A stretch of 64,000 bases of DNA from Escherichia phage vB_Eco_mar004NP2: the sequence record OR896837.1, one strand, 5' to 3'. Below the pieces are notes generated by a model, which saw only the letters and a program-made list of their open reading frames with translations, had not been told where the DNA came from and did not search any database. Position numbers and translations under genes: made by a program. This document shows, one piece after another, positions 4,241-64,000 of the stretch (within the stretch, counting starts at the first letter, position 1; each line of letters starts with the position of its first letter).

Positions 4241-4747
4241 ATGGAAATAAGTAATACTCCAATTATTTTTCTAGACATTGATGGGGTGCTCAATTCGAGC
4301 ATCTCCCATCATCATGCACCTGATAATGAAAAGATTTTCTTTGGAAGTGACTGGGTTTTCAAACCGCTTCTCAAGGCTTTTCAGGATTTTATTCGTCCTT
4401 CTCCGATAATGATTGTTGGAGTATCCTCATGGTTCTCTGTTAGGAATGAGATGGAGAACGTTCAGATTATGACCGGATTAGGTCTTATCGATCGTTTTCT
4501 TGGTACAACTGATTTTACTGGGGGTGGGCTATCTAGAGGTAATTCTGTTCTCCGTTTCGTTGAAAAGCATAAGCTCAAACATTGGTGTGTGCTTGATGAT
4601 GCTGGTGCTACGATGTATCAGTATCCAACGGTTATAGTCAACGGTAGGACTGGGATAAATCTTCAAGATTTAAAAGCTGTTAGCTATATGCTAGAATTTA
4701 GCCCAGATATTGAAATGTGTAAATCCTTACAACAATTTAAGGTGTAA
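4241..4747 (+). CDS. HAD-superfamily hydrolase-like protein (possible nucleotidase/phosphatase)
   Basis: N-terminal FLDIDGVLN (DxDGxL HAD motif I); SD aggaac upstream. Confidence 0.55.
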   Translation: MEISNTPIIFLDIDGVLNSSISHHHAPDNEKIFFGSDWVFKPLLKAFQDFIRPSPIMIVGVSSWFSVRNEMENVQIMTGLGLIDRFLGTTDFTGGGLSRGNSVLRFVEKHKLKHWCVLDDAGATMYQYPTVIVNGRTGINLQDLKAVSYMLEFSPDIEMCKSLQQFKV

Positions 4748-4749
4748 AT

Positions 4750-5178
4750 ATGTTCAATAATGTATTCTCTAAAGAAGCTAACCCAATTTTGGTTAACTTT
4801 TGGCGTACTCTCCCAGCTAGCCTGTATAATGAGGCTATTAACTCTTTGAAAATATGGTGTGAGAATAACGAAATCTCCTTTGCTTTTAAGGATGATATTG
4901 ATGAGGCCCCCTGTATTGGTTTAATTGTGCAGGTAGAGGATGGTCTTGAAGAGATTGTGGGCTGGAAAGAGTTAGACGAAATGGGCTTAGTTTTTGCGTT
5001 AAACTATAAGCTGTTTATGCCTGCTAAGCATCGCCTAGTTGTTAACTATAAAACTAGTGAATCTCCTGGTTTTCAGGTTAATGAACGTTATGGTTGGTCT
5101 TACTCACCGGAAGAAGTGAATGAGGGGATTCAGAAACTTCGCCGTTTCGGGTATATGATCCCAGGTTTAACTGCTTAA
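4750..5178 (+). CDS. Hypothetical protein, paralog A of a tandem pair
   Basis: ORF track; shares a C-terminal block with the next ORF (EL-x-EMGLV-x-LN-x-LF-P...GY-x-IPGL). Confidence 0.55.
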   Translation: MFNNVFSKEANPILVNFWRTLPASLYNEAINSLKIWCENNEISFAFKDDIDEAPCIGLIVQVEDGLEEIVGWKELDEMGLVFALNYKLFMPAKHRLVVNYKTSESPGFQVNERYGWSYSPEEVNEGIQKLRRFGYMIPGLTA

Positions 5179-56387: not shown

Positions 56388-57122
56388 TTAGGCAACTTTT
56401 AATTTCTCAATATATTGTTGAGGACTGCAACTATATTCTGCGCGTTCTTCCTCGGTCATACCTTCCCAGCATAATTTTAAACGGTCAGCTAGGAATTGAT
56501 AATCATTATCATCGTCGAGAGATTCATCAATAAAGGTTTCACCTATCAATGCCACGCCGATTGATAGAATATCATTAACGGCTTGTGCGTCCAGCGTTTT
56601 AAATCCGTATGACGCTGCCGCTGATAGCACGCCTTTATGATCATCAATCATTGTAAAATCAGCGTTAGGATATAACTGTTTAAATAATTCAAAATAATAA
56701 GATTTATATACTGCGTCTTTGCTGTGGTATATTTCGCTAACCTTATCAGCTTTAAAATATTTGTGTAGTGTATCGCGGGAAAATACGCGGATATTACTAT
56801 TACCACGACCGCGCAACCCTTGTTTACGCAAGAAATAATAGTCCGACTTACTCATCAGTCGAGCGGTGCAAATAATGTTTAAAGTATTTGCGTCATTCAT
56901 GCACTGGCGCATATATTCAACCAATGGCAATAAAGTATCTTGCATTATTAAATGGTGTTTACACGCTTCATTTTTATACTTATTTAAATCTAAATTGCCC
57001 TCGCTATCAAAGCAGGGTGCTATACGATGGAAAGAATTAATGATAGTGCCGTCTAAATCCCAAATCATGACGCGGGAAATATGCGGGAAGCTGCGGGAAA
57101 GATTCATGATAGCTTTATTCAT
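56388..57122 (-). CDS. dmp: HAD-family 5'-deoxyribonucleotidase (T5 Dmp-like)
   Basis: 244 aa; HAD motif I WDLDGTI near N-terminus; sits in a pre-early-type module with A1/A2-like genes. Confidence 0.7.
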   Translation of the reverse strand: MNKAIMNLSRSFPHISRVMIWDLDGTIINSFHRIAPCFDSEGNLDLNKYKNEACKHHLIMQDTLLPLVEYMRQCMNDANTLNIICTARLMSKSDYYFLRKQGLRGRGNSNIRVFSRDTLHKYFKADKVSEIYHSKDAVYKSYYFELFKQLYPNADFTMIDDHKGVLSAAASYGFKTLDAQAVNDILSIGVALIGETFIDESLDDDNDYQFLADRLKLCWEGMTEEERAEYSCSPQQYIEKLKVA

Positions 57123-57201
57123 TTGTTACGTTCTCCATTTAAGGGATTAGATTAATTCAGCATTACCCGCTATTTATAAGCGGGTAATAATAAATTAACT
57201 A

Positions 57202-57594
57202 TTAAAGACCATAAGCCAACGCATCGGCGATAAAACTAACATCCTCACCTGATACATGGGAACGAATCCCCGCACAAGTATATACTTTTGCAGAAATCAA
57301 TTGATCATCAAGGCAAGCGGGGCAAGGCGCGACAACTGCAAAGGCTAGACCGGATTTTACTGCGTCGATGATAATCGTTTCTTGTTTCGCCGTGTCAACA
57401 TAAACGCCTTTTGCTTTAATATGGCTAGTTAGTTTGCCTTGCATATATGCAAATGTTGTAACCTGCAAAGCGTCATTGAAATCTAGCAATTCATCAATAA
57501 CGTGCCCCGCCTCGACGTGGTAACGCTCACCATTAGAATAAACCAGAACAATTGAGGATTGAGCGCGGTCAAATGGAATATTTTGCTTTTTCAT
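57202..57594 (-). CDS. Hypothetical pre-early-module protein (130 aa)
   Basis: ORF track; PCPAC motif; conserved leader upstream. Confidence 0.5.
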   Translation of the reverse strand: MKKQNIPFDRAQSSIVLVYSNGERYHVEAGHVIDELLDFNDALQVTTFAYMQGKLTSHIKAKGVYVDTAKQETIIIDAVKSGLAFAVVAPCPACLDDQLISAKVYTCAGIRSHVSGEDVSFIADALAYGL

Positions 57595-57632
57595 GTTTAT
57601 AAAACTCCAATTAGTTTAATAATGGATTTAAT

Positions 57633-57890
57633 TTATTTGATAATAATCTGCATCTGGTACGGTGTTAATTCACCGTTTACGGGTAAATTATTATCGCTTA
57701 GCCACTCATAAAAAGCACCATCATCGTCAAAGGGTACAATATCATTATCACTATAATCGACCGTAATAATCCCATCAGTATTAGTTTTGGCGGCTAGAAT
57801 AGGCCCGAAGCTGTAAACTTTATCGGATTCCATTTCATCCGGTGAAATAAATGCTTTTTCGTCTAGCGTTTTGGGTAATGTAACTTTCAT
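57633..57890 (-). CDS. Small acidic protein (85 aa; candidate DNA-mimic / host-takeover factor)
   Basis: 16 Asp/Glu versus 6 Lys and no Arg by my count; location in the pre-early-type module. Confidence 0.5.
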   Translation of the reverse strand: MKVTLPKTLDEKAFISPDEMESDKVYSFGPILAAKTNTDGIITVDYSDNDIVPFDDDGAFYEWLSDNNLPVNGELTPYQMQIIIK

Positions 57891-57946
57891 TCTAATTTAG
57901 CTCCTGTAATAGCGGCTATATTTCAAGCCGCTAGGGGATTAATTAT

Positions 57947-59611
57947 TTACGCAAAGAATTTACCGTTTTTAAAGTCAATCAAAGTGCGCTGACCGTTTGC
58001 ATAGGTAATTAAATGCGTTTGCGTCCAGCTTGACGCGCCAACGTTGTAACCCATGTCCAGACTACCAGCTACGCCAGCGGTATACACGCCGCCATAAATG
58101 CTGGCGGTGTGAGTGTGTCCGGTGTTTAATTTGCCCAATTTCTTAAATTGTTTAGGATTGCCACGGCTGCCGTTAATGCCGTTGTGACCGTGTACGCCGC
58201 ATTCAATGCCTACAATCTTGAAAGATTGGTCAGTAGTTAGAAAAATGGCGTTAAACTCACAACCTGCAACCTTGCGCAGCGCATAATCTAGCACGTTGAA
58301 AGTATCGTCTTTTTCTGCAATAGCTCCATAAATCGCGGCATTTAGGCGGTGATATAGTTCCGCGTTTGCTGGATCGTCTTTAATGTTAGCATTACGATCA
58401 TCAAGCCAACGGGATAGCGCCAAATCGTGATTAGATTCAACAATGATTGTTTGCGAGAAATCACGTTCCATTGATTCCAGCACGCGCCCCGTATCGATAA
58501 GATCATCTAATACCTTATCACGTCCGGCGGCGTATTGTTTTGCTAGGAATACACCGGATGCGCGGTTGTGATGGTTGCGTGATGTAAAATCATGCACGTC
58601 ATGGATAAACTGATATTTAGGCTTGAGAATATCAAGCAAGCTATTTTCGCCAGCCCATGACGCAACGGCACAATCATCATCTAGTTTTTCTGCGTGAATA
58701 TCGCCGTATTGCAAGCCTAAAACATGCCCCGATGTCTCATAGCATCCGGCAGGAGTAGCGCACACATTCAGATCATAAAATACCCCGCTTTCGTCCATCG
58801 TTTCGAGCTGGCGTACAAAAAATTCCCCGTCCTCGTCGAACTCGACAATTAGCGCACCGAAGTTATGCAGCGCCTCGGCCTTTTGTCCTGCTTTCTGCTG
58901 AATGTAGTTTTTGAGCGTTGCCGTTCCGGTTGAGTACATACGGCGCACTACTTCACCTTTTAAAGCTGGCACGCTTTCAGCGGTAATTTTAGCGTGACCA
59001 ATTGCCAGACCTTCCAGATTAAGCGCCGTTGCAGTTTCAGCGAATCCAGAAAGCGGATAATCTGCGGTTGGCAAAACGTTAATTTCAGCCATGAAAGCAA
59101 AACGGCGGTTATTTAAAAACACGTTTTTATTGCAGATATATTTGTCAAATGCGGAATCATATTTTATTCCTTCTGCACCCTCGCCATTTTGAAAACCGTT
59201 TTTGTTATAAATAAACTTGCTAACCAGCAAATCAGCGCCGATATATTTAGCAAATTGCTCCAATGAGGCTAAAAAGTTTTTATGCGGGAAAGTATTATTC
59301 TGAATCGACGTAATAATAAAGCGTTTACCCTGCTTTACTTCCCATTGCTCAACCGTGCTAGAAACAATCCCCGCCGCTTCTGGACGCTCATCGTTTTTAA
59401 TGGCTTTTGCTACTTTCGCCGCTTTCGGTTTAGCTGGTTTATTTGCTTCCAACCAGTCGCAGATAGCGGTCGAGTGTTTTGTTGTATCGTAGACCGCTTT
59501 TGATATATCGTCGCAGACCTCCAGTTTAGTAGCGCGCAGACGTTTACCATAGAAATTAAAGTCAGCGGCCATTTTCAGGATAACGGTTTGTTTTTCTGTG
59601 GAAATAATCAT
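57947..59611 (-). CDS. A1: A1-like pre-early protein (metallophosphoesterase-type nuclease-like)
   Basis: 554 aa; calcineurin-like motifs GDIHAEKLDD, VESNHD, GHTHTA; size close to T5 A1 from memory. Confidence 0.7.
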   Translation of the reverse strand: MIISTEKQTVILKMAADFNFYGKRLRATKLEVCDDISKAVYDTTKHSTAICDWLEANKPAKPKAAKVAKAIKNDERPEAAGIVSSTVEQWEVKQGKRFIITSIQNNTFPHKNFLASLEQFAKYIGADLLVSKFIYNKNGFQNGEGAEGIKYDSAFDKYICNKNVFLNNRRFAFMAEINVLPTADYPLSGFAETATALNLEGLAIGHAKITAESVPALKGEVVRRMYSTGTATLKNYIQQKAGQKAEALHNFGALIVEFDEDGEFFVRQLETMDESGVFYDLNVCATPAGCYETSGHVLGLQYGDIHAEKLDDDCAVASWAGENSLLDILKPKYQFIHDVHDFTSRNHHNRASGVFLAKQYAAGRDKVLDDLIDTGRVLESMERDFSQTIIVESNHDLALSRWLDDRNANIKDDPANAELYHRLNAAIYGAIAEKDDTFNVLDYALRKVAGCEFNAIFLTTDQSFKIVGIECGVHGHNGINGSRGNPKQFKKLGKLNTGHTHTASIYGGVYTAGVAGSLDMGYNVGASSWTQTHLITYANGQRTLIDFKNGKFFA

Positions 59612-59708
59612 ATTAATAAAACTCCATTAAAGGGATTAAAAAACGTTTGTTATTGGCAAATATTGCCAAATATAACGCCTTGAATAATAGGCGTTATAAT
59701 TTGCAACA

Positions 59709-59906
59709 TTAATTTAAAGGCATAAGGCTAGAACTAACACCACAAGCAATGGCGGCAATAAAACAAATCAGACCTAAACGCTTTGCCAATTTAGACTTAC
59801 GTTTAAAATAATATGAGTCTAAATCATTTTGAAAATAAGCGAATAATAACGAGGCCGCCATAATAAATAAGCCTAGAATTAACGATTCAGTGGGGTAAAA
59901 GATCAT
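59709..59906 (-). CDS. Small two-TM membrane protein
   Basis: ORF track; two hydrophobic helices separated by a basic loop (KRKSKLAKR). Confidence 0.45.
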   Translation of the reverse strand: MIFYPTESLILGLFIMAASLLFAYFQNDLDSYYFKRKSKLAKRLGLICFIAAIACGVSSSLMPLN

Positions 59907-59962
59907 TTTAAAACTCCAGTCAAAGAGAAATTATAGTGGGGAATATTCCCCGCTAATTAAAT

Positions 59963-60370
59963 TTATTCACCTGCGGCCTGTTTTACTTCATCGGCAACGC
60001 CTAACAGTTGCGCTACGGCGTCCAGCGTTTCAAGTTTTGCACTTTCCAGACTTGCCAGACCGTCGGCGTCTTTAATAATGCCGGAATCAATAGCATGTTT
60101 AGCGATAACGCGTACATAGTGAGCTTTGCGGATTGAGCTACCGCCGCCAACTTTGCGAGGCTTATCGCTTTTCTGATACGCTTTTGCGCTGGTCAATTTT
60201 GATCGAACAGACACGGGAGAAGACGCGCCCACTGCTTTTGCAATCTCTTTTAAACCGTCGCTATTTGCGAAATCTAAACCGTTTTCATTAATTAACTGCT
60301 GGTACATAGAAACAGCTTTTTGAGTGTTTTCTTCATTCCAAGCAAATTTTGCGGTTTTAACGTTAGTCAT
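59963..60370 (-). CDS. A2: A2-like pre-early DNA-binding protein (tentative)
   Basis: 135 aa following the A1-like gene; size and position only. Confidence 0.45.
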   Translation of the reverse strand: MTNVKTAKFAWNEENTQKAVSMYQQLINENGLDFANSDGLKEIAKAVGASSPVSVRSKLTSAKAYQKSDKPRKVGGGSSIRKAHYVRVIAKHAIDSGIIKDADGLASLESAKLETLDAVAQLLGVADEVKQAAGE

Positions 60371-60466
60371 GGTAAAAACTCCTATTAGTTTAATTTAAGG
60401 GATAAGATTAACATAATGTTAATCGTTATATCCCCCGAACTACTGGGGGATATAAAAGTAACACTA

Positions 60467-60718
60467 TTACGCTACAGCTTCCCATTTTTCGTTACGCTGT
60501 ACAACCTTTACAACGTCGCCGGATTTAACGCGAACGCTAAAAACGGTTTTGCCGTTGTTACTACGTTCATTTTCAGCGTATACCGCGTCGATTGTATCAA
60601 ACGGCATAAGCGCCGCACCTTTAATACGTTCGGCTTTTCCGGTTAGTTCATCCGTTTTAGTAACGAAAGGAATAAAAACGGATTGACCAATTTTAGGCGC
60701 GGTAATAACGTTTTGCAT
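60467..60718 (-). CDS. Hypothetical protein (83 aa)
   Basis: ORF track; conserved leader upstream. Confidence 0.45.
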   Translation of the reverse strand: MQNVITAPKIGQSVFIPFVTKTDELTGKAERIKGAALMPFDTIDAVYAENERSNNGKTVFSVRVKSGDVVKVVQRNEKWEAVA

Positions 60719-60754
60719 AGTATAAACTCCAAGTTATTTAGGGGATTGTTCCGC

Positions 60755-60781
60755 ATTACCTGCTAGAAAGTAGCAGGTAAT
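60755..60781. repeat. Perfect 11-bp-arm palindrome with 5-nt centre
   Basis: attacctgcta-gaaag-tagcaggtaat, about 35 nt upstream of the 60718 start codon. Confidence 0.8.
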
Positions 60782-60917
60782 AAGCAACAATCCGCTCACC
60801 GCTATAATCAATTTAAGGAACTCCACGCAGGCTGCTATATCCCAGTTAGGGGGCAGGATGATTTATGGGGAATCACCTAACCGTCAAATTGTATCAAGTT
60901 ATCGCTCTCATCGAACT

Positions 60918-61206
60918 GGGTACATCTTAAAGCCTATCGGCTAGGGTGTCAAACTGTTTTTTGCAGTTTTTTATGATTTTCTTTCAGGTCGATCATAATA
61001 TTACGCCAGATCATTTCTAAACCCTGCTGGCGGCCTTTCTTGTACTGAGCAAATCGGTATTTTACGGATTGCTGGGCTATTGTCAACAATTTTTTAGTAG
61101 TACCATCTAATTTTTTAGCTGGTTTACCAGTGATCAATAAAGTTTGTTTCATATCTGCGATTCCTTATAATATAAGTTTACCGCCGATAGACTTTAAGAT
61201 GTACCC
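60918..61206. repeat. 24-bp inverted repeat pair (23/24 match) bracketing a small basic-protein gene
   Basis: gggtacatcttaaagcctatcggc (60918-60941) versus reverse complement of gccgatagactttaagatgtaccc (61183-61206). Confidence 0.85.
60949..61152 (-). CDS. Small basic protein (67 aa, Lys-rich)
   Basis: ORF track; 16 Lys/Arg versus 4 Asp/Glu by my count; SD aagga 9 nt upstream; enclosed by the inverted repeats. Confidence 0.45.
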   Translation of the reverse strand: MKQTLLITGKPAKKLDGTTKKLLTIAQQSVKYRFAQYKKGRQQGLEMIWRNIMIDLKENHKKLQKTV

Positions 61207-61575
61207 AATTTTTAAAGAGCGCGGCGGTAAACTTCCCGCCGTGTAGTTCGTCATTGCCGCCCTACGAGATAAATAATAGCAAATAGTAAAAATGGCGCAA
61301 CCTTATTTTTGTAAAGAAACGTAAAGACAAAATGCCACCGGACACCGTGCGGCGACCTGGGCGCGGCGCACTAAAATTAAAGGAAACGGGCGCGCGAATA
61401 CCATAAAACCCAGCAGGTTGGCAAGTAATTTTTTCATTTATATTTGCCTTGCCCTACTTGACAAAAACTAAAAAGCTCGTGGTAGCGATAAACGAGGGTA
61501 GGCAATGCAATGGCATGGCTAAAAACTTCATCGCGTTATAGGGCGTTTTAGGCGCATTCTAGCCTTGTTGATAAC

Positions 61576-62017
61576 TTATCCCCAAAAGCAAAAATGAAAT
61601 TTTCCTAGTTATCCACTTGACTTTTATTTTCCAGTGGATAACTACTTATTTTATGAAATAAATTAATTGACTTTTATTTGTTAGTATGCATCGGAAAGAT
61701 AGCAGACTAATAGTTGCTAGGATGATAATCATGCTGGTGGATTGTAATAGCCGGAACTGTTAGCAGACTATTAATCACGGAAAATCTCATTAGCCAACTA
61801 ACTATTTCATGATATATAATATACTTATAAATTAATGAGAAATAATAATTATAAGAAATCGTAACCGATAGAAATAATAACTATAAGAAACTATCGTCCT
61901 AAGTGAGAACCACTATCGTTTAAGTTATCCACAAGTTTATTAACAGCACAAAATGATTTGACACGATAGGCGACGATATAAGGACTTATCCACAGACTTA
62001 TCCACATGTTATCCTAC
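61576..62017. promoter_or_regulatory. DnaA-box cluster in a 1.1-kb non-coding region (origin / injection-stop-like region)
   Basis: TTATCCACA-type boxes at 61609-61617 (+), 61633-61641 (-, palindromic pair with 15-bp spacer), 61925-61933, 61986-61994, 61998-62006, plus weaker 61576-61584 and 62009-62017. Confidence 0.6.
61839..61890. repeat. Two 20-bp direct repeats (iteron-like)
   Basis: gaaataataattataagaaa (61839-61858) and gaaataataactataagaaa (61871-61890), 19/20 identical. Confidence 0.8.
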
Positions 62018-62298
62018 TGTATAAATATACAGGGTAAAAAGGTAGTGTTAACAACTGCAATCAATTTTAGGCGGCCTAAAACGCTTTCTAACGAGCTAAA
62101 TGCGGTGGGGTAATATTAAAGTGAAGCCTTCACCCGTCGCCCTGGTGGCTTCACCGTGTTTTGCTCTTTACTGTACCGCTGCGCGGTTAGCATAAAACTA
62201 GGCGCTAGGCAAGGAAAATAAAAAGGTAAAATAATATTTGCCTATGCTAGAAAATTGCCTTTATCATTCACTCACCGATTAACGAGGGAGGCCAACAA

Positions 62299-63060
62299 AT
62301 GAGGCTATATAAACCAGGTAACGCAACCGTCTTAAAAGGTGCGCTGCGTAACCTGCTGGACGGTAGCAGAACAACCAGCATTAAACATTTTATTAACAAG
62401 GCTGAAACTATTCACCAAAACTTTTTTGGTGATTTCGATGCCTATGATATGAATAGTTTTCTACCGTTATATAAACAAGGGGCAACGCTTGTTTTATATA
62501 ATCAAGATTATCAATTGCTCACTAGTCGAGGGCCGGATACTGATTTCATAATCGTAAAAGGTAGCACAGTAAAAGCCTATGATACTGGGGCAGGCTTAGA
62601 AGTTTTTTCAATAGAAAATTATGAAGCCAACCCCAATGATCTTTATGATATTGAAAATTTTCTTGATTCATTTTGGCGTTATTTATCAGTTGGCTGGAAT
62701 CGGTCGGATTGTGACGGGTATCGTTTCGCGGCTGTAATGGCCTTTGATGATAACGGTAATTTTTTGTTACCGTCGGAAGTGTACCCTTATGTATATGAGG
62801 GGGATATTGAAAGCGCGGGCTTTTCTTTCTGGAAGGAGGAAGATCAGCCTATTGACAACACGGAAAAACATGCTGTAAATTCTAACACTCAAAGCGTTAA
62901 CACTCAAACTACTGAAAACAAAGGAAATAATACCATGACCAAGATCGCTAATATCGTTGCCGCTAATAAATCCGCTGTTGTAAATGCTGCAAAACTGGAA
63001 GCTGGCAAAATTGCATTGACTCAAATCACGAAAGTAGCGGCTAAAAACCGCCGTTTATGA
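62299..63060 (+). CDS. Hypothetical protein (253 aa)
   Basis: ORF track; SD gggagg upstream. Confidence 0.55.
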   Translation: MRLYKPGNATVLKGALRNLLDGSRTTSIKHFINKAETIHQNFFGDFDAYDMNSFLPLYKQGATLVLYNQDYQLLTSRGPDTDFIIVKGSTVKAYDTGAGLEVFSIENYEANPNDLYDIENFLDSFWRYLSVGWNRSDCDGYRFAAVMAFDDNGNFLLPSEVYPYVYEGDIESAGFSFWKEEDQPIDNTEKHAVNSNTQSVNTQTTENKGNNTMTKIANIVAANKSAVVNAAKLEAGKIALTQITKVAAKNRRL

Positions 63061-63290
63061 TTAAAGGTTATATTGATACGCCGATTGGTCGGGTAGTTAT
63101 TGCTAACCTGCTGAGCGTAGCGGTTGACCAGTACGCCCCGAATAACCAGAAAGCGAAAGCGGTAGCAGGCGCAGCTATGGAAGCGGCAATGCTAGAAATG
63201 GTGCAAAGTTTTAACATCGCTGAAATGATTGATGAAATGGTGAAAGGTATCGATATTTCTACTTTTACCACTAGCACCGAAAGCGAGTAA
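63057..63290 (+). CDS. Hypothetical protein (77 aa)
   Basis: ORF track; ATGA overlap with upstream gene. Confidence 0.45.
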   Translation: MIKGYIDTPIGRVVIANLLSVAVDQYAPNNQKAKAVAGAAMEAAMLEMVQSFNIAEMIDEMVKGIDISTFTTSTESE

Positions 63291-63355
63291 TAATATTTAG
63301 TGGGGATTGTTTCCCCGCTTTACTATTCCCTTATTAATTAATAGGAGGCTAATAA

Positions 63356-63850
63356 ATGGCTGAGGAAAAATATGGGTTTTCGCTAGGGGAAGTGAGCAAG
63401 GCTAAACATGATATGATCATTTTGGTCGATTGTCATACTGGCTATTGCGGTGAAGGGAATACTGAGGAATATTTTGTTCCTGCTGGTACGGATCTCGACG
63501 CTTTCGCTCATGAAATGGCTGTTGATAATGCTTCTCGTTTTGGTAGCGATGGCTATGAAGATGAGGAAACGGGCGAATGGTATGAGAATGATAATGTATA
63601 TGCAAGCCTTTATCATTATCAATTAAGTAAATCCGGCACATATGTAAACGGCGGCGATCCTATTAATTCCGTCATGAAATTAATTATTAAATATGGTGGC
63701 GCTGAAATAATCGGAAATAAAGCGGTAATATACGCAAACCGACTAAAACAGCTTGTTTATATCCCTGATAGTACCCGATGGGATGAATACGCTGTTTTGC
63801 ATGACGAATTGAAACGATGTTTCAATATTGAAACATTACAAGTAGTTTAA
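63356..63850 (+). CDS. Hypothetical protein (164 aa)
   Basis: ORF track; strong SD taggagg; followed by a terminator-like hairpin. Confidence 0.55.
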   Translation: MAEEKYGFSLGEVSKAKHDMIILVDCHTGYCGEGNTEEYFVPAGTDLDAFAHEMAVDNASRFGSDGYEDEETGEWYENDNVYASLYHYQLSKSGTYVNGGDPINSVMKLIIKYGGAEIIGNKAVIYANRLKQLVYIPDSTRWDEYAVLHDELKRCFNIETLQVV

Positions 63851-63863
63851 TGTAAAGTTTTGT

Positions 63864-63892
63864 AAAGGTCGCCATAATTGGTGGCCTTTTTT
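63864..63892 (+). terminator. Rho-independent terminator (stem includes G-U pairs)
   Basis: aaaggtcgcc / ggtggccttt stem followed by TTTTTT. Confidence 0.45.
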
Positions 63893-63956
63893 GTTATAAT
63901 GCCTTTACACCGTTTAAGGACGGTTGAAAATTTTCCCAAAAATTTGGAGGCTTAAA

Positions 63957-64000
63957 ATGGTTGCTTATTCTTCTGCTAGTCATCTGTTTACCGCGCAAGG
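63957..64000 (+). CDS. Hypothetical protein, N-terminal fragment (continues beyond window end)
   Basis: ATG 63957 preceded by ggagg at 6-nt spacing; only 14 codons in window. Confidence 0.35.
   Translation, partial: MVAYSSASHLFTAQ

Follow-up and report, generated by a model that had tools for sequence, protein, structure and literature searches.

We analysed a stretch of 64,000 nucleotides from Escherichia phage vB_Eco_mar004NP2 (sequence record OR896837.1), referred to below as the window, and within it an inverted repeat of 24 bp whose two arms bracket the small gene hdi, one arm coinciding with the core of the promoter P-D/E20 and the other lying in the hdi leader. The 701 bases around the repeat show 100% identity to Escherichia phage vB_Eco_mar004NP2 and to Salmonella phage SPLA5b, and T5 together with many Tequintavirus phages aligns with the window region at 89–95% identity, the match lying at ~4.1–5.5 kb, within the left terminal repeat. 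The phage is T5-like, and the repeat locus is part of its pre-early (first-step-transfer) region; the genes listed for the surroundings of the locus (Table 1) are all on the minus strand. Pre-early expression in T5 is a classic and poorly understood host-takeover programme, whose promoters, including P-D/E20, are strong and have been used in expression vectors. Our central observation is that the two arms differ between phages while remaining complementary to each other, and we propose that they may act as the halves of a long-range RNA duplex.

The inverted repeat, hdi and the overlapping promoters

The left arm reads GGGTACATCTTAAAGCCTATCGGC, and the right arm is its reverse complement at 23 of 24 positions (coordinates in Table 1), with 241 nt between the two; the sole mismatch reads as G.U on the minus (sense) strand and as C-A on the plus strand, and an imperfect extension carries the repeat to 39 nt at 82% complementarity (60903–60941 with 61183–61221). 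This is the best long-range inverted repeat of the window, in which no further copy of an arm was found at up to 3 mismatches, and 100 dinucleotide shuffles returned 0.00 matches, which bears out the 24-bp repeats that had been pointed out in a first-pass annotation made from the sequence without database searches. That annotation had also asked whether the arms might be a common dispersed motif. A 36-mer covering the arm occurs at 920 places in 435 phage records, all of them T5-like, or approximately two places per terminal-repeat copy; at this frequency the arm is not a dispersed motif, and the repeat forms one locus per terminal repeat.

The repeat, the gene hdi and the promoters are each already known individually. 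The arms of T5 (4669–4707 and 4951–4989) are the same in sequence as those of the window, and the T5 record AY587007 (Wang et al. 2005) lists an "inverted repeat A" (IRA) at 4682–4706 and an "inverted repeat A'" (IRA') at 4950–4974, so that the window arms are, judged by position and sequence, the homologues of IRA and IRA' and belong to a repeat that has been catalogued. Davison names the pair Repeat Region 1 of the left terminal repeat and gives it no function, remarking only that the region lies too far left for the injection stop signal (bioRxiv 10.1101/866236). In both sources it is an untranslated repeat without an assigned function, whereas here it is read as an RNA helix. In the Hangzhou T5 record, the gene between IRA and IRA' is left without annotation. 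The identity of the repeat with IRA/IRA', the identity of the enclosed gene and the coincidence of the downstream arm with the core of P-D/E20 are points that the first-pass annotation did not contain.

The basic, Lys-rich open reading frame (ORF) of 67 amino acids (aa) which that annotation had placed, with its Shine-Dalgarno sequence (SD), between the arms is the characterised pre-early gene T5.008. Its product, renamed Hdi, destabilises FtsZ rings, blocks host division and gives T5 a competitive advantage (PMC10714956). A Cas13a spacer directed against hdi has been used to counter-select the wild type for an hdi deletion mutant, and because this spacer worked in counter-selection, hdi RNA is made during infection. 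The hdi stop codon lies 7 nt ahead of the 3' (downstream) arm, and its TGA falls within the -35 hexamer of P-D/E20, a hexamer that is kept in Epseptimavirus despite a different C-terminus of Hdi. A further ORF annotated in T5, T5.009 (T5 4915–5022, 35 aa; window ~61167–61256, minus strand, ~29 aa), crosses the G+C-rich hairpin upstream of the repeat, the 5' arm and the hdi SD and overlaps the hdi start codon with its end. This end shifts where the variable spacer has gained or lost bases, and several phages have other sequence in the region; going by these features of the sequence, T5.009 is probably spurious, an annotation artefact, and if it were translated, ribosomes would open the 5' arm.

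The 3' arm is part of the spacer, the -10 element and the discriminator of P-D/E20, a promoter that is predicted here and whose activity is taken from literature and annotation: AY692264 places "promoter P-D/E 20" at complement(4664–4738) and AY587007 a "pre-early promoter T5P1" at 4663–4737, both of which cover IRA. RefSeq NC_005859 puts "promoter P-D/E 20" at 4338–4664, a 327-bp range without the promoter, which looks like a typing error for 4664–4738. The two arms belong to the sense strand of a single operon and are separated by nothing that resembles a terminator, a candidate conserved promoter lying upstream; over 60300–62400 as a whole, a scan gave no minus-strand terminator-like site. 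Since the predicted start of P-D/E20 lies just past the 3' arm, its transcripts lack both arms, and since the P-H22-type promoter, a second strong one, lies inside hdi, between the arms, its transcripts contain the 3' arm only; from the positions of these two promoters it follows that an RNA with both arms must start upstream of 61206. The candidate upstream element (61273–61300) is followed by a conserved initial sequence, and both the element and its spacing are kept in Epseptimavirus, Sugarlandvirus, My1 and KEY.

Several roles for the arms as transcription signals were considered and set aside. An intrinsic terminator does not fit, as the arms are 241 nt apart, the sequence past the 3' arm is not U-rich and the terminator scan of 60300–62400 was negative. 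A promoter inside or just after the 5' arm, which would exclude this arm from the hdi mRNA, was sought by scan and by reading, neither of which turned up a -35/-10 pair at usable spacing. The inverted copy is rejected as a rightward promoter because the -35 position matches at 2/6, the only -35-like hexamer lies 13 nt from the -10 and the -10 itself is damaged in Shiner and My1. Nor has this copy been preserved as a promoter: a one-base deletion, which in RNA makes no more than a bulge, disrupts its -10 in Shiner, and the -10 of My1 is disrupted by a substitution that leaves a G.U pair in RNA.

Table 1. Features of the repeat locus and its surroundings in the window (positions in the 64,000-nucleotide stretch)
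Feature	Position	Strand	Remarks
5' arm of the predicted helix	61183–61206	minus	in the 5' untranslated region (UTR) of hdi; T5 "inverted repeat A'"; sense strand GGGTACATCTTAAAGTCTATCGGC
3' arm of the predicted helix	60918–60941	minus	T5 "inverted repeat A"; spacer, -10 (TAAGAT) and discriminator of P-D/E20
Outer 5' extension	61207–61221	minus	CGCTCTTTAAAAATT; contains the conserved GCTCTTTAAAAA motif
Outer 3' extension	60903–60917	minus	AGTTCGATGAGAGCG; pairs imperfectly with 61207–61221; first ~15 nt of P-D/E20-initiated transcripts
hdi (T5.008 homologue), 67 aa	60949–61152	minus	PHROG 4718; enclosed by the arms
hdi Shine-Dalgarno, AAGGA	61162–61166	minus	15 nt downstream of the 5' arm, outside the helix; conserved TAAGGAATCG
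P-D/E20-type sigma-70 promoter	60924–60952	minus	TTGACA (60952–60947)-17-TAAGAT (60929–60924), 10/12 match; predicted start ~60917
P-H22-type promoter inside hdi	61059–61086	minus	TTGACA-16-TAAAAT, 11/12 match; T5 annotation
Candidate upstream promoter	61273–61300	minus	TTGCGC-16-TATTAT, ~65 nt upstream of the 5' arm; 8/12, under the scan threshold
G+C-rich hairpin	61222–61241	minus	CGGCGG, 8-nt loop, CCGCCG; just upstream of the helix; poor intrinsic terminator
T5.007 homologue	60467–60718	minus
A2	59963–60370	minus
Small membrane protein gene	59709–59906	minus
A1	57947–59611	minus

Covariation, layout in relatives and predicted folding

For comparison, loci were gathered from IMG/VR, metagenomes and GenBank phages and gave 19 distinct arm-pair haplotypes among the T5-like and Epseptimavirus phages; as many loci are redundant, with a second IMG/VR scan returning mostly the same contigs as the first, counts are given per distinct haplotype, and pair counts are from an alignment of the arms only, a MAFFT alignment with flanks having misaligned the TrudiGerster arm. 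Over the 18 haplotypes of equal length, standard pairs make up 98.8% of cells on the sense strand and 94.0% on the antisense strand. Changes on both sides occur at 5/24 pairs (positions 1, 3, 4, 6 and 9), examples being a U-A pair that is A-U in Epseptimavirus, a pair at which C-G, U.G and U-A are all present, and three double changes in TrudiGerster. The observed covariation was reached by 0/500 shuffles, and when the partner strand was slid by 1–3 columns, pairing fell to 45% or less. One phage carries a compensatory insertion, with an extra A in the 5' arm and an extra T in the 3' arm that bring the helix to 25 bp, and in some Epseptimavirus phages the outer extension is perfect, giving a helix of 39 bp. 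Base pairs are thus kept by compensatory substitutions, as in conserved structured RNAs, and we regard it as highly probable that the complementarity of the arms is under selection. A scan of 60300–62400 against Rfam 15 gave only sub-threshold chance matches elsewhere and no described RNA family.

The mismatches that do occur are unevenly distributed between the strands. On the sense strand G.U pairs account for 26 cells, spread over 8 positions and in several cases fixed throughout a clade, and A.C pairs for 4 cells at 4 positions, all of which are singletons. Because of this asymmetry, pairing in RNA, or in a single strand of the same sense, is favoured over duplex DNA, a point that is not in itself decisive; on balance we think that the complementarity probably acts in RNA.

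The same layout recurs with unrelated arm sequences in four other lineages, represented by Yersinia phiR2-01, Klebsiella Shiner/SEL21, Pectobacterium My1 and Erwinia KEY. In each phage the 3' arm holds the phage's own -10 element (TAAGAT, TAATAT, TATTAT, TACTAT or CATAAT) and is matched by a complementary 5' arm; because the layout is kept with different arms, the 5' arm tracks the local promoter sequence whatever this is. Yersinia phiR2-01 has one extra base per arm, at the same place in both, which holds the helix in register. Shiner and SEL21 (Sugarlandvirus) have the arms TTGGGATTCTATAAAAAGCGTTATCGGC and GCCGATAACGCTTTATTATAGAATCTCAA around two genes, the second encoding a distant Hdi homologue, with a TTGACA-17-TATTAT promoter located in the 3' arm. 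My1 has 28-nt arms around My1_014, with TTGCAA-18-TACTAT in the 3' arm and its Hdi homologue outside the bracket, downstream of the 3'-arm promoter, and KEY has 25-nt arms (24/25) around two other genes, with TTGCAA-17-CATAAT. In every lineage examined, the GCTCTTTAAAAA motif is followed by the 5' arm and then, ~15–20 nt on, by the ribosome-binding site, and the last stop codon precedes the 3' arm. The motif, given as GCTCTTTAA(A/C)AAnTTGG, precedes the 5' arm in every lineage and has a second copy after the 3' arm; loci with copies are 61207–61221 in the window and, among the collected loci (designated by L numbers), L035 (942–958 and 1427–1445), L096 (~7050 and 6745) and L099 (790–806 and 1198–1214). 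The copy past the 3' arm is direct in Shiner, My1, KEY, phiR2-01 and part of Epseptimavirus, inverted in the other Epseptimavirus phages, where the helix reaches its 39 bp, and inverted and partly decayed in T5 and the window.

What lies between the arms is variable. T5 and the window have hdi alone, with 241–245 nt between the arms; chee24-like phages, Seafire, Ob_P and TrudiGerster have an extra small gene between the ribosome-binding site and hdi, at 398–438 nt; Gostya9 has only a gene of that other type, hdi being absent, at 217 nt; and KEY and My1 have the other genes mentioned above. Overall, one or two genes are enclosed and the arms stand 217–438 nt apart, and the positions of the arms beside the SD and the stop codon are kept. 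Because the enclosed content varies, the arms go with the slot that separates the upstream leader from P-D/E20 and not with hdi, and because the spacing varies, a pair of protein sites with fixed geometry is disfavoured. The comparison with related phages that the first-pass annotation had recommended thus finds the arms present in relatives and their content exchanged, and the tie it had drawn between the arms and the 67-aa gene is lost, given that the arms persist where hdi is accompanied, replaced or moved outside. The proteins that accompany Hdi in the slot or stand in for it are small, with 52–63 aa (L008 1046–1204, L034 606–776, L040 410–601 and L035 1011–1178). Those of Gostya9, TrudiGerster and Shiner have, by eye, a common T-V-E/A-x-A-E motif and belong to different PHROGs or to none.

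Folding of the 381-nt sense RNA gives a minimum free energy of -110.4 kcal/mol (z = -5.96), with a predicted unbroken helix of 31 bp between 61180–61210 and 60914–60944 and an outer segment of 7 bp; barring the 5' arm from pairing costs ~39 kcal/mol. In nine lineages, the arm-arm pairing probability is 0.87–1.00, with the helix within the minimum-free-energy structure. The hdi SD and start codon are predicted to lie in the loop and the SD of the next gene ~190 nt downstream, so that no ribosome-binding site is taken up in the fold. The first-pass annotation had suggested that an mRNA spanning both arms could pair its 5' and 3' ends. Pairing of the arms within mRNA agrees with both the covariation and the folding, whereas the pairing of the physical ends of the message does not hold, since it is the 5' UTR that pairs with the RNA copy of the next promoter.

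A proposed read-through duplex and competing explanations

We propose that the arms are halves of a long-range RNA duplex that would exist only in leftward pre-early transcripts begun upstream of hdi. Such read-through RNA would form a duplex of 24–31 bp (up to 39 bp in relatives), both strands of which host RNase III would cut, excising a cassette mRNA with base-paired ends. Cleavage would uncouple the cassette, which is hdi here and other small genes in relatives, from the downstream A2/A1 genes, and the A2/A1 part has its own promoter exactly at this boundary. A near-perfect duplex of 24–39 bp is expected to be cut on both strands by RNase III in E. coli, and the predicted helix, with 31 bp in the window and 24–39 bp in relatives, has the length of an RNase III substrate (at least 20 bp with few interruptions). 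We infer from these data that pairing takes place in RNA rather than in DNA, that RNase III cleaves the helix and that the stability of the mRNA is affected; the RNase III processing model in this form is the explanation that we favour by a little over even chances.

The proposal has parallels in well-studied systems. RNase III makes double-strand cuts in the stems on either side of 16S and 23S rRNA and at intercistronic sites in the early operon of T7, and the hdi locus resembles these in that flanks pairing over at least 20 bp loop out a product, within a phage early operon transcribed by the host polymerase; in contrast to the local T7 hairpins, the looped-out product here would be a small mRNA of 217–438 nt, the 3' strand doubles as a promoter and cleavage is an assumption of the model. 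In IS10 and IS50, a local fold-back hairpin hides the transposase ribosome-binding site in transcripts that enter the insertion sequence (IS) from upstream. As in these elements, transcripts of the internal promoter miss one arm, so that only read-through RNA would fold; unlike in them, the helix takes in no ribosome-binding site, and hundreds of nt separate the arms. In hok mRNA, translation and antisense binding are controlled through pairing of the genuine 5' terminus with the 3' end (the tac/fbi elements of hok/sok). Common to hok and hdi is a long-range pairing that closes the mRNA of a small toxic protein, but at the hdi locus both partners would lie within a longer transcript, and there is no sign of an antisense partner. 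Finally, the promoter-early stem-loop (PeSL) cassettes that Arbiol et al. are said to have described in T4-type phages in 2010 reportedly consist of direct repeats at many loci, each with a local stem-loop; they share with the present locus conserved early-promoter sequences that flank small variable early genes and the exchange of modules between relatives, and differ in that here a single locus has inverted, mutually complementary arms.

A number of points weigh against this proposal. The excess of G.U pairs is modest when counted by position (8 vs 4, or ~12 vs 6 with the other lineages), and at four-fold sites T outnumbers A on the sense strand (139 vs 89), so that a C-to-T bias could partly explain it. 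Compensatory change is also expected from gene conversion between DNA repeats or from two sites co-evolving with one protein, and a few phages have unpaired positions (two A.C in Gostya9, a U.U in CitS1 and a C.A in KEY). Ribosomes terminating 7 nt before the 3' arm must briefly open its inner end. The upstream promoter is a candidate with an 8/12 match, the GCTCTTTAAAAA motif, direct in some lineages and inverted in others, has no explained role, and a literature search found no mapping of T5 pre-early transcripts or their starts, no RNase III data and no in-vivo structure probing.

The covariation and the folding would be equally well accounted for if the RNA arms paired and cutting by RNase III were not the point, the stem serving instead to stabilise the hdi message against exonucleases and RNase E, to aid ribosome recycling by bringing the stop codon near the start, or to allow a hok-like control. 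As the toxic Hdi is transcribed only early and yet has to keep the host from dividing while the infection runs, a long-lived message would be sensible, and both spacings, arm to SD and stop codon to arm, are kept; against this, the SD and start codon lie outside the helix, so that direct masking of translation is not evident, and it would be surprising, on general knowledge of RNase III, for such a near-perfect duplex to stay uncut in E. coli. We therefore consider a stem with another outcome rather unlikely. If the arms acted as DNA, they would be inverted recognition sites for RNA polymerase or for a phage or host regulator (for example, in the A1-dependent pre-early shut-off), through which P-D/E20 and the hdi leader would be controlled together, perhaps by looping. 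One arm is a bona fide RNA polymerase site, the arms change together as if co-evolving with one protein, and protein-binding repeats, DnaA boxes among them, abound in the region. Yet the spacing varies over 217–438 bp with no helical phase kept, the arm sequences are unrelated between genera while complementarity is kept, the inverted copy has no -35 and in two lineages a damaged -10, and the sense-strand G.U bias of the mismatches is not expected from a duplex-DNA site. The binding-site pair that had been suggested in the first-pass annotation is accordingly disfavoured, and we give a DNA role only a small chance.

An equally small chance attaches to the idea that the repeat has no function, being either a relic of an inverted promoter duplication or a conserved recombination linker through which co-infecting phages swap small pre-early genes, comparable to the promoter-stem-loop cassettes of T4-type phages. 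In its favour are the variable content between the arms (hdi, another gene plus hdi, that other gene only, or still other genes), the homology breaks that often fall at the outer GCTCTTTAAAAA motif, the phage CitS1, which looks recombinant and has arms of two types, and the similarity of the T5-like arms, which runs on inward over the -35 region with a 6-nt deletion. A relic would be expected to decay, however, and the 5' arm is as conserved as the promoter, follows its changes and is kept with new sequences in five lineages; linkers, for their part, need be neither inverted nor complementary. What can essentially be excluded is a small mobile element that carries hdi and has the arms as its terminal inverted repeats, of the kind of a miniature inverted-repeat transposable element (MITE-like) or an insertion sequence (IS-like). 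Terminal inverted repeats of 24–39 nt around a small gene, together with a 17-nt direct repeat outside both arms in some lineages, have this appearance, and a miniature inverted-repeat cassette was among the readings first offered for the locus. It does not survive the finding of one locus per terminal repeat in the 435 phage records, at a constant place in the pre-early operon, with no transposase and no adjacent target-site duplication: the flanking GCTCTTTAAAAA copies are inverted in the window and T5, and where they are direct (Shiner, My1 and KEY) they stand 5–10 nt off the 3' arm and do not abut it. Moreover, one arm is an essential-looking promoter.

The processing model, which we continue to prefer, can be taken one step further. 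The 5' arm could be regarded as an "anti-promoter" leader that is complementary to the RNA of the next promoter and marks read-through RNA as distinct from promoter-initiated RNA, as a general rule of Demerecviridae pre-early operons that has held in at least five lineages while the arm sequence turned over completely; read-through RNA would then be cut, or otherwise handled, exactly at the promoter boundary, and a swappable slot for small host-takeover genes would become an autonomous, stem-closed mRNA. This generalisation is tentative, and we think it more doubtful than the processing model itself. In the sources searched, it appears undescribed that IRA' is the complement of the P-D/E20 core and that the pair evolves as a helix, as does the layout across Demerecviridae with turnover of sequence and the swappable gene slot that it encloses. 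If the repeat is a read-through-specific processing signal, this would explain why it ranks among the most conserved non-coding features of the terminal repeat and how the gene of a toxic FtsZ inhibitor, transcribed in the first minutes only, is expressed separately from the essential A2/A1. The sequence of a promoter would, in that case, be under a double constraint, as DNA and as a strand of an RNA helix, and T5-like phages would have a conserved slot in which they swap small early genes.

Further structures and neighbouring features

Some phages (loci L013 and L024) carry the G+C-rich hairpin that precedes the helix (CGGCGGGAAGTTTACCGCCG on the sense strand) in exact reverse-complement form, equivalent to an inversion of the loop. 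In bobsandoy, SE24 and TrudiGerster other sequence takes its place, and in Klebsiella phages the hairpin and 57 nt around it are found at 98% identity, though the arms differ. A 13-bp hairpin that would join 61174–61186 to 61222–61234 was considered as a conserved switch and rejected, as its upstream half lies in the G+C-rich hairpin, which is flipped or replaced in relatives.

Other long hairpins occur in the same operon. On the minus strand at 60740–60796, between P-D/E20 and the T5.007 homologue and ~20 nt upstream of the T5.007 ribosome-binding site, lies a hairpin of 26 bp with an internal mismatch, whose outer stem (GGATT.../...AATCC) is conserved and whose inner stem exists in three self-complementary versions (T5-like, Epseptimavirus and TrudiGerster). 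It constitutes a second conserved structure and is possibly another RNase III site. Intergenic hairpins at 59659–59710 (22-nt arms) and 57152–57198 (20-nt arms) stand just upstream of A1 and downstream of it, respectively. By analogy with RNase III-processed phage early operons, such hairpins in one operon would fit a theme of processing.

Upstream of the candidate promoter, a hydrophobic ORF of 44 aa (MKKLLANLLGFMVF...) is found at 61303–61437 on the minus strand, with ~17 N-terminal residues kept in many relatives; its length ranges from 17 to 44 aa through indels, its ATG is missing in T5, and a promoter-like TTGTCA-16-TATAAA overlaps its start. The ORF is probably not a gene, and its conservation may be regulatory. 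Farther upstream, paired sequences resembling DnaA boxes (TTATCCACA) occur at 61606–61644, 61921–61935 and 61985–62005, in non-coding DNA between divergent pre-early units, and are the counterparts of the IRC/IRD repeats, which Davison considers in connection with the injection stop signal (bioRxiv 10.1101/866236).

The pre-early terminal-repeat region (~56500–64000) sits in the interior of the window, and because of this position the source assembly is circularly permuted, with the terminal repeat collapsed to one copy. T5-like sequence at 89–100% identity is also filed under the names "Listeria phage LM 4-14-1" and "Listeria phage LM 4-11-1" and in two "Campylobacter" phage records, which are probably contaminants or mislabelled contigs.

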